Source: a virus (lineage: Duplodnaviria > Heunggongvirae > Uroviricota > Caudoviricetes). Taken from it: a stretch of 5,644 nucleotides of DNA. The position numbers and the translations under genes are program-made. Positions 1 to 5,644 of this stretch are shown in pieces. Location: positions 1-5,644 of the IMG/VR virus record IMGVR_UViG_2684622552_000005. One strand, written 5' to 3'. The number at the start of each line of letters is the position of its first letter. Position 1 is the first letter of the stretch. The notes beneath the pieces are model-generated. The model did no database searches. It had not been told where the DNA came from and saw nothing but the letters and a program-made list of their open reading frames with translations.

Positions 1-568
1 TATCGCGTCCTCAACAATGAGTTTTGTGATGCGGTGCCTGGTGCCTCCAGGTGACGTTAACCAGTTAACAATTAACGCCGGATACAGAGAATCCACCCAT
101 AACACTGTTTTTGGTTTTAACTGTTCCGCGTGCGCTTAGCCGCATTCACCGCATCACAAAATTCACTTTAAAAAGGGCGGCAGAGCAGTCACGGAGTAAA
201 ACTGATACCGCCAAACGTCACCAGAAAATTGATAACAGAGGGCGTTGCAGCGGGGTTGTCACTTAAGCGTATGGTCAACCTGACAACCCGGTGTCCTCAA
301 CGGGGGAAGGAATAACCCCGCCATACTTACCGCCGCGCCATTTCGCGGATTGCCACAACCGGAAGCGCACGGTCGACGAAAATTTAACGACAGGCTATCT
401 ATGAACCAGCTACCTCGCCGTGCGCTTTCGCGTTATGGTCTGACTTTTCAGGGAAATATCCTTTCAGTAAACTGTCAGTGCCGGATGCTCACCCGTGTCC
501 GGCGCACGCACTCCACCTCACCCGTGGAGAACTCCTTAATTACCAACCTTAGCTTCGTTGGTTAGCTA

Positions 569-787
569 TTAACGCGGGTATGTAATCATTCTGGCAATGC
601 TTAATGCCGCTGCTTTTTCCAGATTGGTGATATCCTGCTCCAGAGAGGACAGATTTTCAGCCTGCTTAGCCCTGGCTTCATTGGCCCATTTCAGATCCTG
701 CGCTGCATTAATTTTCTGGTGCATCCACTCATAAAGTTCATCATCGGTATAGTCTGGCGCGATGATGACGGGTTCTCGTTTCTGCAT
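569..787 (-). CDS. Hypothetical small prophage early-left protein (72 aa)
   Basis: ATG-initiated ORF (plus-strand cat at 785-787); GAGGAA Shine-Dalgarno 5 nt upstream on the minus strand; co-oriented with and downstream of two other small ORFs and the repressor gene. No recognisable motif. Confidence 0.5.
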   Translation of the reverse strand: MQKREPVIIAPDYTDDELYEWMHQKINAAQDLKWANEARAKQAENLSSLEQDITNLEKAAALSIARMITYPR

Positions 788-816
788 ACTGATTCCTCGC
801 GGTGCTGTTTCGCTTA

Positions 817-945
817 TCAGCCGTTAGATTTTGCCGAACTGGAAAGCGCCTGTTTAAATTCGTTGAAGCTGAGAGCTTCTTCGCCTTCGGCAAGACCTTC
901 GAAGTATTCTTCGTAAGCCTTTTCCATGATTGTGTCGAAATCCAT
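817..945 (-). CDS. Hypothetical small acidic protein (42 aa), apparently translationally coupled to the upstream ORF
   Basis: Not in the ORF track (below its length cutoff). Hand translation: MDFDTIMEKAYEEYFEGLAEGEEALSFNEFKQALSSSAKSNG. ATG at 943-945 lies 1 nt after the TGA of ORF 947-1183 (TGAtATG); AGGTGA Shine-Dalgarno 5 nt upstream. The frame stays open upstream to about 1018, so a frameshifted remnant of a longer gene is an alternative. Confidence 0.35.
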   Translation of the reverse strand: MDFDTIMEKAYEEYFEGLAEGEEALSFNEFKQALSSSAKSNG

Positions 946-946
946 A

Positions 947-1183
947 TCACTCACCTGAGTTTCTTTCCAGCCAGCGACGGGCACCATTTTCGGTTTTAAA
1001 CGTTTTGCTTTTGGTATACGTCATCGCGGTGAACGTACCGTCCTGGTTGGGGAACACGCCACATACCAGAGATTCGCTGTTGCCAAGATCGATAGTATCC
1101 ATGCTGACCTCATTTCCCCTTAACGCCGGGGTAGCGGAACAAAAACCTGCTGCATAGTTATTAAAGTTGAACCCTGCCGTCAT
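947..1183 (-). CDS. Hypothetical small prophage protein (78 aa), first gene of the leftward operon
   Basis: ATG-initiated ORF (cat at 1181-1183) with GAGG about 9 nt upstream; lies directly downstream (leftward) of the putative OL/PL region. No recognisable motif. Confidence 0.5.
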   Translation of the reverse strand: MTAGFNFNNYAAGFCSATPALRGNEVSMDTIDLGNSESLVCGVFPNQDGTFTAMTYTKSKTFKTENGARRWLERNSGE

Positions 1184-1288
1184 GTTCTTACGCCTCGGGC
1201 TGGCTACTTAACCCCTGACCACTGCCTGGTAACTCGAAGTATTGCCCTGCATTCTGTGGGGCGGGGTGGGTTGGTATGAAAAGAAGGA

Positions 1289-1325
1289 TACCCATAGGTA
1301 TTTAAAAAGTAAATACCCATGGGTA
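1289..1325. promoter_or_regulatory. Putative OL: two 12-bp palindromic operator sites (TACCCATAGGTA at 1289-1300; perfect palindrome TACCCATGGGTA at 1314-1325), likely overlapping a leftward promoter
   Basis: Seen in sequence: two sites of the form TACC-N4-GGTA with centres 25 bp apart in the 185-bp gap between the repressor gene and the leftward small-gene operon. The same motif family recurs in the repressor/ydaS divergent region. Possible minus-strand -35 TTTACT / -10 TATCCT overlapping the sites (weak call). Confidence 0.5.
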
Positions 1326-1367
1326 ACTTTTTGCGATGTCTTAACTGGTGACTAGTTGTTTGGTGAG

Positions 1368-1787
1368 CTATGATGCGTTTTGTGCTTTCTTTTTACGGAT
1401 TTCTTCGTAGATCATATTGTAATACTGTTTTTTCTCTTCAAGAGTTTTTAATAATTTATCCGCTTCACTTTCTGGCAGTTCGTCTAAGAGATCTAAAAAA
1501 ATACGTTGTCGTGGCGTTAGAACCCTTGTTTCATAACTGGAGGCTGTGTTCGTTGATGATGAAACGATACCATCCATCCATCCCCGGGGTAACCCAAAGG
1601 ACTCTTCGATAATCTCCACCATATCATCAGCGATCCGTTTTTTTCCCTTTTTCCCCTCTGGGTACAACATTCTTGATACATAAGAAGGCTCGCGCCCGAT
1701 CTTTCTGGCCACGTTAACCGCTTTACCATCGCATTTCTCATCACGAATTTTGATGAGTTGCTGTCGTCTAAATTCATATTTGTCCAT
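1368..1787 (-). CDS. Prophage immunity repressor, HTH DNA-binding protein (CI / RacR-like functional analogue; no LexA-like peptidase domain)
   Basis: 139-aa ATG-initiated ORF. N-terminal segment (KAVNVARKIGREPSYVSRMLYPEGKKGKKRI) looks like a Cro/CI-type helix-turn-helix; the C-terminal half is charged and helical (likely dimerisation). Sits divergent from a Cro-like gene and between two operator clusters, the position of a lambdoid repressor. Confidence 0.75.
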   Translation of the reverse strand: MDKYEFRRQQLIKIRDEKCDGKAVNVARKIGREPSYVSRMLYPEGKKGKKRIADDMVEIIEESFGLPRGWMDGIVSSSTNTASSYETRVLTPRQRIFLDLLDELPESEADKLLKTLEEKKQYYNMIYEEIRKKKAQNAS

Positions 1788-1807
1788 AGGTAAATAATAG
1801 ATGCGAT

Positions 1808-1862
1808 TACCGCAAGGTAAACAACCTATGGGTATTGACTTTTGTTTACCTGTGGGTATTCT
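1808..1862. promoter_or_regulatory. Putative OR/PR: three operator-like sites (TACCGCAAGGTA 1808-1819; AACCTATGGGTA 1823-1834; TACCTGTGGGTA 1847-1858) overlapping a rightward sigma70-like promoter (-35 TTGACT 1835-1840, 16-bp spacer, -10 TATTCT 1857-1862)
   Basis: Seen in sequence. The sites share the TACC-N4-GGTA pattern with the OL sites. The promoter hexamers are positioned to drive ydaS (AAGGAG Shine-Dalgarno at 1877-1882, ATG at 1888). The three-site arrangement resembles lambda OR1-3. Confidence 0.5.
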
Positions 1863-1887
1863 TTGCTGTGTTTACTAAGGAGTAGCT

Positions 1888-2169
1888 ATGGAAGAATTAA
1901 GAATATTTCTCAATTCTCTTTCGTCAGATGAACAGCGTATGTTTGCATGCGAGTGTGGTACCAGCATCGGTTATCTAAGAAAGGCATTGAGTAAAGGTCA
2001 AGTGTTAGGGGCATCGTTATGTGTCCTTATTGAGCGAGCCAGTAATGGTGAAGTTACACGTCAGCAACTAAGGCCTTTTGATTGGATGAATATTTGGCCC
2101 GAGCTGGAAGATACCAAAACGTTAACACAACCACTTTCTAGGAGCTTGATTCATGAAAATCAAGCATGA
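1888..2169 (+). CDS. ydaS: YdaS-family Cro-like HTH regulator (93 aa)
   Basis: ATG with AAGGAG Shine-Dalgarno; divergent from the repressor. C-terminal motif IERASNGEVTRQQLRPFDW matches, from memory, the conserved IERAT.GEV...LRPD..W segment of Rac YdaS-family proteins. Its 3' end overlaps the start of the next gene by 17 nt. Confidence 0.7.
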   Translation: MEELRIFLNSLSSDEQRMFACECGTSIGYLRKALSKGQVLGASLCVLIERASNGEVTRQQLRPFDWMNIWPELEDTKTLTQPLSRSLIHENQA

Positions 2170-2578
2170 ACACATCCGCATGGCGATGAATGCCTGGGCG
2201 CATCCGGACGGTGAAAAAGTTCCGGCAGCTGAAATAACCAGGGCTTATTTTGAACTGGGTATGACGTTCCCAGAACTGTATGACGACAGCCATCCGGAAG
2301 CCCTGGCTCGCAATACCCAGAAAATTTTCCGCTGGGTAGAGAAAGACACCCCTGATGCAGTTGAAAAAATTCAGGCGTTGTTACCAGCGATCGAAAAGGC
2401 AATGCCACCTTTGCTGGTGGCCAGAATGCGCAGCCACAGTTCAGCTTATTTTCGGGAGCTGGTGGAGACGCGGGAGCGACTGGTGAGAGATGCTGATGAT
2501 TTTGTCGCAGTGGCAATCGCCGGTTTCAATCAGATGAACCGTGGTGGCCCGGCAGGAAATGCTGTGGCAGTGCATTGA
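2153..2578 (+). CDS. ydaT: YdaT-family protein (141 aa), CII-like regulator / reported toxic component of the Rac ydaS-ydaT module
   Basis: Starts MKIKHEHI, as I recall for E. coli Rac YdaT. AGGAG Shine-Dalgarno 8 nt upstream. Overlaps the ydaS stop, indicating co-transcription. Family assignment is from memory and positional context, not a search. Confidence 0.7.
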   Translation: MKIKHEHIRMAMNAWAHPDGEKVPAAEITRAYFELGMTFPELYDDSHPEALARNTQKIFRWVEKDTPDAVEKIQALLPAIEKAMPPLLVARMRSHSSAYFRELVETRERLVRDADDFVAVAIAGFNQMNRGGPAGNAVAVH

Positions 2579-2649
2579 GTGATAATAGCCATATCGAATC
2601 GCTTCCGGCAACTCGTGAGTAAAAAGATTCGGTATCAGAAGAGGTGAGT

Positions 2650-3720
2650 ATGGCTAACGCCTGGCTCAGATTATGGCATGACATGCCAAATGACCCTAAG
2701 TGGCGAACAATTGCCAGGGTGTCAGGGCAGCCAATTGCAACAGTGATGGCAGTGTATATCCACCTCCTGGTGAGCGCGTCACGAAATGTCACGCGAGGTC
2801 ACATTGATGTCACGACAGAAGATTTGGCAAGTGCGCTCGACGTGACAGAAGAGGTAATTGATTCAATTTTGCAGACGATGCAGGGGCGGGTACTTGATGG
2901 TGATTTAATCACTGGATGGGAAAAACGCCAGGTGCTTAAAGAGGACAACGGTAATATTTCGCAAACCGCAAAATCTCCTGCAGAGCGCAAGAGGGCGCAG
3001 CGAGAGAGGGAAAGAAAGCGGGAACAAAATGGCGATTGTCACGGCGCGTCACGAAATGTCACGCACATGTCACGACGAGTCACGACAGATAAAGATACAG
3101 ATAAAGATACAGATCAAGAAGATCAAAACACTATGGTCCATGGCGTAAAAAACGCCACGAACCAGGCAGGGGATGTTCAGACCGTCAATCCTGGTCAGCC
3201 AGCAGGCACGACACCGGAAGCCGATTCAGCGTATGCGCTGAAAGCCGATTCGGGCGCTGTGCAGCAGGTGATGACCCAAAGGCCGGAACAATCACACCAA
3301 CTGCAGCAGCCTGAAGCCGATTCCGCCATTCAGCGGGAAGCCGATCGGGTAGTCCCGGAAAACACCGGGCTGTCTGTGGGACGAGTGGATTATCCGGATG
3401 TGTTCGAACAGGTCTGGCGGGAGTACCCGTTGCGTGCCGGAGCAAACCCGAAGAAATCCGCTTTCAGTGCCTGGAAGGCCAGATTACGCGAGGGGGTGCC
3501 ACCAGAGGCCATGCTGGATGGCGTGAGGCGTTACGCAAGATACTTGGCGGCTACCGGGAAAACGGGAACGGAATTTGTTCAGCGAGCGACGACGTTTTTT
3601 GGACCGGACCGGAATTTTGAGAACCCCTGGTTGCTCCCGGTAAGCGGCACGAACAACCAGCGTTGTGTGAATCATATTTCTGAACCGGATAACGAAATTC
3701 CGCCGGGCTTCAGGGGGTAA
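2650..3720 (+). CDS. Phage replication initiator-like protein (lambda O-like organisation) with iterons inside the coding sequence
   Basis: The ORF track starts at GTG 2644; ATG 2650 with GAGG 5 nt upstream is the more likely start. The C-terminal region (VFEQVWREYPLRAGANPKKSAFSAWKARL...FVQRATTFFGPDRNFENPW) resembles the conserved C-terminal domain of phage replication proteins. Two clusters of GTCACG repeats and an AT-rich repeat lie within the gene. It occupies the position after cro/cII analogues. Confidence 0.7.
   Translation: MANAWLRLWHDMPNDPKWRTIARVSGQPIATVMAVYIHLLVSASRNVTRGHIDVTTEDLASALDVTEEVIDSILQTMQGRVLDGDLITGWEKRQVLKEDNGNISQTAKSPAERKRAQRERERKREQNGDCHGASRNVTHMSRRVTTDKDTDKDTDQEDQNTMVHGVKNATNQAGDVQTVNPGQPAGTTPEADSAYALKADSGAVQQVMTQRPEQSHQLQQPEADSAIQREADRVVPENTGLSVGRVDYPDVFEQVWREYPLRAGANPKKSAFSAWKARLREGVPPEAMLDGVRRYARYLAATGKTGTEFVQRATTFFGPDRNFENPWLLPVSGTNNQRCVNHISEPDNEIPPGFRG
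2778..2814. repeat. Iteron cluster 1: four copies of GTCAC(G/A) at 10-11 bp spacing (2778, 2788, 2798, 2809)
   Basis: Seen in sequence: cgTCACGaaatgTCACGcgaggTCACAttgatgTCACGacag. Helical-turn periodicity is typical of initiator-binding iterons. Confidence 0.55.
3038..3110. repeat. Iteron cluster 2 (five GTCACG copies at 3038, 3048, 3058, 3069, 3079) followed by a tandem AGATAAAGATAC x2 AT-rich repeat (3087-3110): putative prophage replication origin
   Basis: Seen in sequence. The first 21 bp of this cluster (gcgcgtcacgaaatgtcacgc) are identical to the start of cluster 1, about 270 bp upstream. An iteron array plus adjacent A+T-rich tract inside the initiator gene mirrors ori-lambda inside gene O. 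Confidence 0.55.
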
Positions 3721-3760
3721 GTGTTAATTTCTGGTCATGAGGTAATTTTCAGGAGGGCTT

Positions 3761-4186
3761 GTGGCAAAAGTTTTTACACAAGAAGAGCGGGAAAAAATTA
3801 AAGGGCAGGTTGTTGAACTCGTACGCCAGAGTGGGCGCGAGACGTTACGACAACTGGAAACTAAAACTGGGGCAACAAGATATCTGATGAGCGTTCTGGC
3901 CAGAGAGCTGGTTGCCAGTGGCGATGTATACAACTCTGGTTACGGGTTATTCCCGTCTGAACAGGCGCGTAAGGACTGGCAAAATGCCCGTAAAAAGCTC
4001 TCAAGGGCAAAGCTGAAGAAACCATCTGCGGTTGATCCGGACCTTATCTGGTCATTACCTGACGGAGAAATACGTCGCTACGATAGTTGTCTAAACATAA
4101 TCTGTCGCGAGTGCCGGAAGAGCGAAGTTATGCAGCGCATTCTGGCATTTTATCAGGGAAATGTTAGGTATTTTAGACGTTACTAG
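3761..4186 (+). CDS. Hypothetical protein (141 aa) of unknown function in the slot where a helicase loader is expected
   Basis: GTG start with a strong AGGAGG Shine-Dalgarno 4 nt upstream, 40 nt after the initiator gene. No Walker A motif seen. Contains a C-x4-C-x2-C cluster (CLNIICRECRK). Composition resembles the flanking phage genes, not the AT-rich gene downstream. Confidence 0.55.
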   Translation: MAKVFTQEEREKIKGQVVELVRQSGRETLRQLETKTGATRYLMSVLARELVASGDVYNSGYGLFPSEQARKDWQNARKKLSRAKLKKPSAVDPDLIWSLPDGEIRRYDSCLNIICRECRKSEVMQRILAFYQGNVRYFRRY

Positions 4187-4276
4187 ATTAAAGGGCATTA
4201 GTTCAGATATGCATTGACATTTTCATGGCACAAGGTAGAGCTAGCGTGGTTGTTCGCTTTGTGCCAAGAGTGGTCA

Positions 4277-4372
4277 TTGATAATATTTGGGTGGGTTACA
4301 TCTGTCAATGTTTCAGGTGATATGATATACAAATAGCCAGACTTAGACTGGCATGCTGTTTATTTTTATATT
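4277..4372 (+). promoter_or_regulatory. Candidate promoter(s) for the AT-rich cargo gene: extended -10 TGaTATGAT (4318-4326) and/or -35 TAGACT (4344-4349) with 17-bp spacer and -10 TATATT (4367-4372)
   Basis: Seen in sequence within a 215-bp AT-rich noncoding stretch between the stop at 4186 and the cargo gene start. Hexamer matches are by eye and not supported experimentally. Confidence 0.3.
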
Positions 4373-4413
4373 ATGGGTGTGCCACATGGATTTAAAACTT
4401 ATTGAGATATGAC

Positions 4414-5439
4414 ATGGATACTTTTCATAATATTTTGCTTGAGCACATAGACAGCCTTTTAAAAGAGAGACTTGATTTATCTGGTGACGCTGATATCGAA
4501 AAAGAAATTAATAACCTAATTCCCAAAATAGCCATTGTCGTTAAAAAATCTCTTATTGGCTCGGCCAATGCAATGCTTAGAGAACATCGTTCTCTTTGTG
4601 ATGAATTTGTTGAGAGAAATATTTCAAGATGGGCAGAGGCTTTTGATTTGCTCGAAACACTTATAGTGATATGCACGGAGTCCGGTGAAGAGTTCAATCG
4701 TTCTTATAGACCACAAGCTGCCTCTGAAGAGGATGTGGTTTTTGATTTAGTCGTTCGGCATCACGCAAGAGCTTGCCACATCGCCAACGAAATTTTGTGT
4801 CTCTTAAAGAATGGATTTGCAGATGCTGCCCAAGCGAGATGGCGAGCACTTCATGAGGTAGCGGCCACAGCTATGTTTATAGCAAAGCATGGAAAAGAGT
4901 GTGCTGAGCGCTTTTACTACCATGAAGTGGTTGATTCATATACTGGAATGTTGGAACACAAAAAGTACGAGCACCGGTTAGAAGCAAAAGGTCCAACTAT
5001 TGAAGAAATAGCTGAGTGTAAAGTTCAATTTGATCTATTAATAAAAAAATACGGCAAAAAATATGCAGATAATTATGGGTGGGCATCTTATATTTTCCCT
5101 AACCATAATAAAGTGGGGTTTGGAGCTATTGAGAAAGATGTTCAGTTAGAACACATGCGCCCTTATTATAAGTGGGCGAGTCAGAATGTACACACCGGTT
5201 CCAAGGCAATGAGAAATAGGCTTGGTCTCTGTGAAACTGGTGATGATATATTATTGGTCGGGCAAAGTGATTCAGGAATGGCTGATCCAGCCCATGCTAC
5301 TGCTATTAGTTTGATGCAGATTACTGTGACACTTTTATTCTTAAAACCAACCATTGATCATGCCGTCATTTCAAAAATAATACAGGATTATTCTGATGAG
5401 ATTGGAAATGTATTTCTTAAAATTGATAAGGGTAATTAA
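4414..5439 (+). CDS. AT-rich cargo ORF of unknown function (about 341 aa from ATG 4414; the track start at 4402 is a TTG); candidate accessory / anti-phage protein
   Basis: Long uninterrupted ORF whose base composition is visibly more A+T-rich than the flanking prophage genes. It has its own upstream noncoding region. No transmembrane stretch, P-loop or other recognisable catalytic motif was seen by eye. One R-x6-H segment (RHHARACH, about 4756-4779) is noted only as a weak HEPN-like hint. It lies between the replication module and an IS element, a typical prophage moron/defence-island position. Confidence 0.75.
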   Translation: MDTFHNILLEHIDSLLKERLDLSGDADIEKEINNLIPKIAIVVKKSLIGSANAMLREHRSLCDEFVERNISRWAEAFDLLETLIVICTESGEEFNRSYRPQAASEEDVVFDLVVRHHARACHIANEILCLLKNGFADAAQARWRALHEVAATAMFIAKHGKECAERFYYHEVVDSYTGMLEHKKYEHRLEAKGPTIEEIAECKVQFDLLIKKYGKKYADNYGWASYIFPNHNKVGFGAIEKDVQLEHMRPYYKWASQNVHTGSKAMRNRLGLCETGDDILLVGQSDSGMADPAHATAISLMQITVTLLFLKPTIDHAVISKIIQDYSDEIGNVFLKIDKGN

Positions 5440-5518
5440 AAATTGGAAAAGTGATAGTATATTCTTGTTTTTTTTACTGGTAATTAAATGTTTTTAAAGT
5501 TACTAGTTCACACCTATC

Positions 5519-5644
5519 TGAATCGCCACGGGTTTAACAGACACCTCAGAGTCATTTAAGATGGCTTAAAGAGAGGTGCCCATGAGCGGTAAGCGTTATC
5601 CCGAAGAGTTTAAAACTGAAGCAGTCAAACAGGTTGTTGCTCAA
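5519..5644 (+). mobile_element. Left end of an IS3-family insertion sequence (putative left inverted repeat starting TGAATCGCCACGGGTTT at 5519), truncated by the window edge
   Basis: Begins with TG and is GC-rich, like IS3-family terminal repeats as I recall them. It lies 63 bp upstream of an OrfA-like start preceded by AGAGAGGTG, similar to the spacing and Shine-Dalgarno context I recall for IS3. Exact boundary is uncertain; the right end is not in the window. Confidence 0.55.
5582..5644 (+). CDS. IS3-family transposase OrfA, N-terminal fragment (continues beyond the window)
   Basis: Hand translation MSGKRYPEEFKTEAVKQVVAQ matches the characteristic N-terminus of IS3-family OrfA proteins (K-R-x-[YF]-x-x-E-F-K-x-E-A-V). 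ATG at 5582 with a GAGAGGTG Shine-Dalgarno upstream. Confidence 0.65.
   Translation, partial: MSGKRYPEEFKTEAVKQVVAQ

Follow-up and report, generated by a model that had tools for sequence, protein, structure and literature searches.

What holds the early genes of a lambdoid prophage of Escherichia coli in check is the question raised by a 5,644-nt stretch of viral DNA (Caudoviricetes; IMG/VR virus record IMGVR_UViG_2684622552_000005, positions 1 to 5,644), referred to here as the window. The initial annotation had proposed that five palindromes of the form TACC-N4-GGTA, two to the left (OL) and three to the right (OR) of a repressor gene, are operators that set the immunity specificity of the prophage. 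These palindromes very probably serve as operators in the immunity switch of a Qin-type lambdoid prophage, with lambda-like control of the rightward promoter PR, the repressor promoter PRM and the leftward promoter PL. By its sequence the window is a Qin-type prophage of E. coli in which the dicA/dicC immunity cassette was exchanged for another, because its left arm is near-identical to that of Qin and other genes lie to the right of the repressor.

A motif scan of the window found four exact matches to TACCNNNNGGTA (OL1, OL2, OR3 and OR1; Table 1) where 0.04 exact copies of TACC-N4-GGTA are expected, and none of 200 dinucleotide shuffles reached four or more. Allowing one mismatch adds OR2 (AACCTATGGGTA) and one stray match at 2327, with 1.17 expected. 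All five sites lie within the two intergenic regions on either side of one gene, the 139-residue repressor open reading frame (ORF), and three of them fall in the 100-bp gap between this gene and the cro-like gene. The positions and letters of the five sites given in the initial annotation (four exact, one with a single mismatch), their place on both sides of the repressor gene and their spacings of 15, 24 and 25 bp were all reproduced: centre to centre, the left pair is 25 bp apart (1294.5 to 1319.5) and the right-hand sites are 15 bp (1813.5 to 1828.5) and 24 bp (1828.5 to 1852.5) apart. Measured from the repressor ATG, the right-hand sites are at -71, -47 and -32. No third OL site was found at up to two mismatches near 1200-1400. 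A two-mismatch site with a good right half, TGTCCATAGGTA at 1781-1792, lies across the start codon of the repressor, at a distance of 27 bp from OR3; it is probably coincidental, because it is confined to the E. coli cassette and unconserved in relatives.

Chance or base composition as the source of the motif was ruled out by the shuffles and by background counts. The initial annotation had named beforehand a similar density in unrelated coding sequence of the same genome as a result that would speak against operators; a 41-kb stretch of E. coli O145:H28 with the same prophage contains a single further exact copy outside the immunity region. In 270 kb of related loci there are 118 exact copies; 61 belong to the upstream cluster, 52 to pairs 20-30 bp apart in other places, and 5 stand alone, so that operator clusters hold 113 of the 118.

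The arrangement recurs in other bacteria. The comparative set consisted of 46 loci, namely 44 species-level genome loci with the N-terminal domain of the repressor, phage mEp043 and the window. Three sites are present in 30 of the 46 at about -72/-73, -47/-48 and -32/-33 from the repressor ATG, so the search for the motif in related prophages that the initial annotation had suggested found its layout of three sites at OR and two at OL, with the same spacings, in several bacterial orders. Among these 30 three-site loci, OR3 is always within -32 to -35 of the ATG and OR2 and OR3 are always 15 bp apart, with OR1 and OR2 separated by 25 bp in 27 loci and by 24 bp in 3 (window included). A downstream pair 24-26 bp apart, placed around a PL-type promoter, is found in 31 loci, 460 to 2900 bp beyond the repressor ATG in the relatives (25 bp apart in the window). 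Hosts of the layout include Enterobacterales, Aeromonas, Neisseria, Burkholderiales, Xanthomonadales and others.

Within the three-site loci the eight outer bases of the motif are almost invariant and the spacers between sites vary freely. The central four bases follow the pattern YRYR (pyrimidine-purine, twice) in 24/30 OR1 and 26/30 OR2 sites and in only 6/30 OR3 sites; therefore the effective half-site is probably TACCYR, and OR3 would be intrinsically different. The repressor-proximal half of OR2 varies between loci in its last two bases, T/G/C and then T/A/C (GGTT, GGGA, GGCC), whereas GGTA is nearly invariant in the other four site classes.

Presence of the motif tracks the recognition helix of the repressor, which, together with the conserved layout, supports the proposal that these operators set immunity specificity. 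SYVSRML(Y/W) is retained in every motif-bearing locus, with no more than a single conservative substitution, and the motif is absent from distant homologues with other recognition helices (loci L022, L039, L043, L044 and L045). Two of these, from Advenella (L039 and L043), have the helix P-A-S/T-I-S-H and a single longer palindrome about 60-40 bp upstream of the ATG (ATACCGC-N8-GCGGTAT in L039, ACCGT-N8-ACGGT in L043), which looks like a shifted specificity within the family.

A Cro homologue is present in nearly all three-site loci, and YdaS of prophage CP-933P binds its own intergenic region (PMC8630535), so one could suppose that the palindromes are read solely by the Cro/YdaS-like protein, or else by some other factor, with the 139-residue protein acting elsewhere. 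We consider this highly improbable. Klebsiella spp. loci L005-L010 (about 2928-3000 and 3900-3990) encode S24 repressors of 233 residues (annotated as 242) with an identical recognition helix, and they keep the -73 site, in some cases the -33 site, and the downstream 25-bp pair; OR2 is absent and no Cro-family ORF was found beside the repressor. Because these loci keep repressor and sites in this way, the motif follows the repressor and not Cro; the Klebsiella arrangement itself is a different circuit on the same protein-DNA pair. Loss of the motif also coincides with recognition-helix changes in the repressor, and lambda-type switches share operators between both proteins, so a Cro-only reading is not parsimonious. 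As for another factor, YdaT was examined as a ligand of the palindromes and ruled out: its footprinted high-affinity inverted repeat, TTGATT-N6-AATCAA, whose location in CP-933P is known (PMC9986795), differs and is found once in the window (0.03 expected by chance). The Cro-like protein, which is 73% identical to mEp043 Cro, is presumed by analogy to be a second ligand of the same operators.

The sites are placed against predicted promoters in a consistent way. Three promoters can be drawn from the sequence (Table 1), PR toward the cro/ydaS-like gene, ydaT and the replication genes, PRM toward the repressor, and PL, which would drive ydfA-ydfB-ydfC-dicF leftward and would be the counterpart of dicBp. 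OR1 spans the predicted PR spacer and the first two -10 bases (centred at -16.5 of PR), OR2 lies between the PRM -35 and the PR -35 with its centre at about -41.5 from the predicted PRM start, and OR3 overlaps the predicted PRM -35 and spacer (centred at -26.5). Because the PRM -10 hexamer ends 6 nt before the repressor ATG at 1787, the repressor mRNA is predicted to be leaderless, like those reported for lambda cI and paaR2 (PMC8630535). On the minus strand the predicted PL reads GGTA-TTTACT-17 nt-TATCCT, the same design as PR with a weaker match, and the GGTA half of OL1 contributes the first two bases of its -10. In relatives, TTGA always comes right after OR2 (the 'TCAATACC' block), TTTACC always forms the left edge of OR3, a TAnAAT-like hexamer (TAGAAT, TAAAAT) ends 6 nt before the ATG, and PL has the layout site, TTGACA-like hexamer, site, with better hexamers (TTGACA ... 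TATATT/TAATAT). The earlier claim that the sites overlap promoters is supported: the three right-hand sites overlap predicted PR and PRM, and the left pair flanks a weaker predicted PL that is much clearer in relatives.

The left pair also folds, and this opens a different explanation, in which OL2 and OL1 act primarily as RNA: a 16-bp hairpin on the minus strand followed by UCCUUCUUUU would end the repressor transcript as an intrinsic terminator, instead of or besides an operator role. A scan for terminator-like sequences does pick 1325->1289, and the RNA fold reaches -22.9 kcal/mol (z = -5.6 vs shuffles). Any two similar palindromes 25 bp apart would fold so, however, the U-tract is broken, the pair in relatives is placed relative to the promoter (TTGACA between the sites, -10 after the second) and not to the end of the repressor gene, and the right-hand trio is left unexplained. 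A primary role as terminator is therefore very improbable, and the hairpin could add termination to the operator function.

The protein encoded between the two operator sets supports the same picture. The claim that the central 139-residue gene encodes a repressor-type protein is supported by its match to phrog_5736 ('transcriptional regulator'), by an N-terminal helix-turn-helix (HTH) domain in its AlphaFold2 model, by its structural neighbours and by the name cI of its homologue in mEp043. The model (predicted local distance difference test score 86) places helices at 3-18, 23-30, 34-40 and 54-63, with SYVSRML as the recognition helix at about 34-40, followed by a disordered linker (77-87) and a C-terminal helical hairpin (92-138). 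Foldseek placed first the repressor of Salmonella phage SPC32H, which is non-cleavable (5d50, E 1.4e-3), and next XRE-type HTH proteins and restriction-modification controller proteins (C-proteins), matches that are weak and speak for the fold class only. A sequence search against solved structures returned nothing meaningful (best E 0.078), and PADLOC gave no match. The last 50 residues resemble the C-terminus of DicA: the NCBIfam model of DicA, NF007257, aligns to residues 86-136 only (E 1.9e-5), with a score of 24.5 bits that is below the cut-off of 101 for the DicA subfamily, and the C-terminal 46 residues are 33% identical to DicA. By its lack of a Pfam match and by the modelled hairpin, the repressor has no C-terminal Peptidase_S24 autocleavage domain, unlike relatives with PF00717. 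RefSeq names it 'hypothetical protein', and a literature search on its RefSeq protein accessions yielded nothing relevant.

Relatives of the repressor are modular. A protein database search returned 317 clusters at E <= 0.001, and most of the matches listed are proteins of 220-242 residues that join the first 72 residues of the repressor (50-80% identical) to Peptidase_S24; their sources are Salmonella, Klebsiella, Edwardsiella, Yersinia, Pantoea, Citrobacter and others, and the fusion of this HTH domain to an S24 (LexA-type) domain occurs in many Gamma- and Betaproteobacteria. Short forms with a DicA-like tail were also found in Yersinia, Serratia and Arsenophonus, and Paraburkholderia has short forms that lack any Pfam domain. 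Among isolated phages the domain is present in mEp043 (annotated cI, beside cro, cII, O and N) and CharmingMan, with more distant homologues in Xanthomonas, Mannheimia and Edwardsiella phages. A 300-residue variant from Neisseria sp. (L028, 3001-3903) has a second, canonical HTH_3 domain between the family N-domain and S24.

Taken together, these features suggest how the switch would work. From sequence and layout we infer repressor binding, the order in which the sites are filled, PRM activation and the leaderless start; cooperativity and bistability are proposed by analogy with lambda, DicA/DicC (PMC10448788) and PaaR2/YdaS (PMC8630535). A repressor dimer would sit on each 12-14-bp site (wTACC-YRYR-GGTAw) through its N-terminal HTH domain. 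Occupied OR1 and OR2, which flank the PR -35 and cover the spacer and -10, would turn off the cro/ydaS-like gene, ydaT and replication, and occupied OL1 and OL2 would shut PL and silence ydfABC-dicF and, further left, dicB. Repressor on OR2, about 41.5 bp upstream of the leaderless transcript, would activate PRM as lambda CI does from its position, and OR3, over the PRM -35 and spacer, would switch off repressor synthesis at high concentration or with Cro bound, the Cro-like protein presumably competing for the same sites. The 24-25-bp spacing of OR1-OR2 and OL1-OL2 and the always-defective OR2 half suggest pairwise cooperative filling, which would run through the C-terminal DicA-like helical domain. 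YdaT at its own operator would supply a PRE-type establishment arm.

With lambda, the window shares divergent repressor and cro genes, a tripartite OR over the predicted PR and PRM, further operators at the predicted PL, a 24-25-bp promoter-proximal pair, an OR2 about 42 bp upstream of a predicted leaderless transcript and a CII-type gene after cro. It differs in an unrelated operator of 12-14 bp (17 bp in lambda), in having only two OL sites, in an OR2-OR3 spacing of 15 bp instead of 23 bp, in an OR3 that lies over the PRM -35 whereas that of lambda lies over the -10, and in a DNA-binding domain that Pfam does not see, followed by a short helical hairpin in place of the S24 protease.

Induction of the switch would probably not proceed by RecA-stimulated self-cleavage; it may depend on an antirepressor or on repressor instability, as for DicA, which is subject both to an antirepressor and to its own intrinsic instability (PMC10448788). 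Because the repressor is without S24 and DicA is run in this manner, induction is probably SOS-independent. The ORF after hokD in the O145 prophage was considered as a Rem-type antirepressor and ruled out, being unrelated to Rem.

Leftward from about 1135 the window is nearly identical to ydfA-ydfB-ydfC of K-12 Qin, with scattered mismatches only, and because the homology breakpoint sits just upstream of ydfA, only the immunity cassette differs from Qin. The G+C content of the cassette is 0.41 vs 0.49-0.51 on the left (bases 1-1200) and 0.48-0.59 in most of the right (2001-4000). Many E. coli chromosomes carry bases 1100-2200 at 99.7% identity, and among 5426 complete E. coli genomes at least 822 contain 80% or more of these bases. 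In the O145:H28 strain RM12761 the region belongs to a lambdoid prophage inserted beside rspB, whose left part has integrase, exonuclease and dicB and whose right part has replication genes, Q, lysis and head genes.

Polymorphism among the E. coli copies was read from an IMG/VR scan, whose best 80 contigs are all near-identical E. coli copies that add no further diversity. In 74 OR and 65 OL regions from these contigs, segregating sites number 2/40 in the core, 9/20 in the central bases and 19/118 elsewhere, small numbers that are descriptive only, from copies that carry essentially identical repressors. The central changes are all transitions and keep the pyrimidine-purine pattern. OR3 has TACC changed to TACT (window 1811) in 8/74 copies (loci L048-L127), and the PR -35 (1838-1840) is changed from TTGACT to TTGGCT, TTGTCT or TTGGTT in a few copies and to the up-type TTGACA in one; these polymorphisms may reflect tuning or decay of the switch in cryptic copies. 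Some E. coli encode variants of 135-136 residues (window 1517-1777, minus strand; P0010 and P0019) whose N-terminal 40 residues come from an alternative frame (MNLDDSNSSKFV...), and these are frameshifted repressor alleles without the recognition helix.

Such copies bear on a simpler explanation, that the palindromes are genuine operators of a mere lock on toxic genes (dicF/dicB, ydaS/ydaT), with no cooperativity, PRM activation or bistability. Many E. coli copies lie in decaying mosaic prophages, where the block shared with the window usually stops near 971 leftward and near 2567 rightward, some have the PR -35 changes TTGGCT and TTGTCT or frameshifted repressors, RacR-type locks on ydaS-ydaT are documented, and the cooperative features of the switch rest on inference. 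A mere lock is nevertheless hard to reconcile with conservation of the switch features over wide phylogenetic distances, since the 25/15-bp geometry, the defective OR2 half, Cro, and CII-like YdaT with its operator are kept over a wide phylogeny and in viable mEp043. The two closest studied systems, PaaR2/YdaS and DicA/DicC, are moreover bistable. A lock without a switch is in our judgement unlikely.

Against the reading of the five palindromes as operators of a lambda-like immunity switch stand several points. Binding of the repressor to the palindromes is deduced from sequence, the protein has no Pfam match and its structural matches are weak. The consensus promoter scan of region 1150-1950 lists exactly two promoter-like sites, PR and PRM, vs 1.7 expected by shuffling; by themselves the hexamers are therefore not significant, and they draw their weight from conservation in relatives; PL, at 8/12 consensus matches, is below the scan listing. 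Most of the co-variation cannot separate the repressor from Cro, because Cro accompanies the motif in nearly all three-site loci, and the low core polymorphism in E. coli rests on few sites. The 15-bp OR2-OR3 spacing is without a lambda counterpart, and tblastn with Rem of Qin, the antirepressor of DicA, against the window and the 41-kb O145 prophage gave noise only, so that no antirepressor was found there. Lastly, no description of the TACC-N4-GGTA motif or of the mEp043 operators was found in the searchable literature, which leaves out most subscription journals.

Among the known systems, mEp043 (PV340537 / NC_019706) has the same DNA-binding domain, 65% identical over 86 residues with an identical recognition helix; its copies of the motif stand at -72, -47 and -32, and a further pair, 25 bp apart, precedes N. 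The window carries the features of this type of module, the shared N-domain (MDKYE...SYVSRMLY...) and the three sites with a downstream pair, and DNA-binding domain, Cro and operators appear to form a separate immunity type common to both. In mEp043, the cI product has 228 residues with S24 and is presumably SOS-inducible, PL drives N, and CII is lambda-like and not YdaT.

With DicA/DicC of Qin (PMC10448788) the window shares the chromosomal neighbourhood in O145:H28 (rspB), a near-identical leftward operon ydfABC-dicF and a short non-cleavable repressor with a similar C-terminus; it differs by replacement of the N-domain, the Cro gene and the operators, which would give a different immunity. 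DicA and DicC acting on dicBp form a bistable CI/Cro-type switch with the same gene order (PMC10448788), and the same can be said of PaaR2/YdaS/YdaT of CP-933P (PMC8630535). The CP-933P system (PMC8630535, PMC9986795) shares the order of short repressor, cro-like ydaS and ydaT, a very similar YdaT, the YdaT operator at the same junction, a leaderless repressor mRNA (predicted in the window) and OL and OR sets. Its operators are 18-bp repeats with the consensus GTTTAGTAA (PMC8630535) and not TACC-N4-GGTA, and no paaA2-parE2 toxin-antitoxin pair lies behind the repressor of the window. Identity of the palindromes with the PaaR2 operators was ruled out, as the consensus differs.

Table 1. Operator sites, predicted promoters and genes of the window (coordinates in window positions)
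Feature	Position	Strand	Sequence	Remarks
Leftward operon under predicted PL	175..1102	-		ydfA 947-1102, ydfB-like 817-987, ydfC 569-787, DicF small RNA 175-226
Predicted PL (dicBp analogue)	1285..1313	-	TTTACT-17-TATCCT	-35 at 1313->1308, 17-nt spacer, -10 at 1290->1285
OL1	1289..1300		TACCCATAGGTA	Exact match; promoter-proximal member of conserved pair
OL2	1314..1325		TACCCATGGGTA	Exact match; perfect 12-bp palindrome, abuts predicted PL -35
Repressor gene	1368..1787	-		139 residues; HTH 1-72, linker 77-87, DicA-like hairpin 92-138
Predicted PRM	1794..1821	-	TTTACC-16-TATTAT	Toward repressor
OR3	1808..1819		TACCGCAAGGTA	Exact match; central 4 bp not YRYR
OR2	1823..1834		AACCTATGGGTA (TACCCATAGGTT on repressor strand)	One mismatch; repressor-proximal half-site degenerate
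Predicted PR	1835..1862	+	TTGACT-16-TATTCT	Toward cro/ydaS-like gene, ydaT, replication genes
OR1	1847..1858		TACCTGTGGGTA	Exact match
cro-like gene	1888..2169	+		93 residues, YdaS-like HTH; phrog_35; Pfam YdaS_toxin sub-threshold (E 9e-6)
Putative YdaT operator	2146-2163		TTGATTCATGAAAATCAA	Exact TTGATT-N6-AATCAA at cro/ydaT junction
CII-like ydaT	2153-2578	+		PDB 3c4r, 8bt1 matches

On the left of the cassette, the DicF small RNA (minus strand) scores 76.7 bits in Rfam. On the right, YdaT has 2 differences over 141 aligned residues from PDB 3c4r and matches 8bt1 at E 1e-80, and further right are a replication initiator and a DUF977 protein. Within the replication-initiator gene, clusters of GTCACG repeats with a period of about 10 bp and three tandem 12-mers (ACAGATAAAGAT) at 2778-2816, 3038-3086 and 3085-3120 look like origin iterons embedded as in lambda O. 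The region 4200-5644 is of low G+C content (0.36-0.41) and encodes a 345-residue DUF5677 protein at 4402-5439 with no PADLOC match; we read the region as a probable moron or insertion where the early-right operon ends. An ORF from 5582 runs off the end of the window with a product that begins MSGKRYPEEFKTEAVKQVV... and that, by eye, resembles an IS3-family transposase.

The locus is of interest mainly because its operator layout is conserved so widely and so rigidly, and because C-terminal domains are exchanged. A 'hypothetical protein' common in E. coli gains a concrete operator sequence and a predicted promoter map, and prophages and phages homoimmune with it, such as mEp043, are predicted. 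In carrier strains the switch would govern the dicF/dicB cell-division inhibitors as well as the ydaS/ydaT/replication arm. One operator grammar combined with either a LexA-type protease or a DicA-like domain amounts to a natural experiment on the rewiring of induction with DNA recognition untouched, and synthetic switches could use the compact operator of 12-14 bp, strictly spaced at 25/15 bp, as an orthogonal part.

More tentatively, though we regard it as a serious possibility, the DNA-binding domain, Cro and the five-site layout may be an ancient, rigid 'switch chassis' of Gamma- and Betaproteobacterial temperate elements onto which C-terminal sensor or oligomerisation domains are swapped; these may include S24 proteases of differing length, the DicA-like hairpin and the extra HTH in Neisseria. 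If so, the induction signal would evolve by domain exchange with operator grammar and geometry fixed, and one immunity core would serve the phages of very different hosts, the E. coli form being SOS-blind and guarding dicF/dicB.

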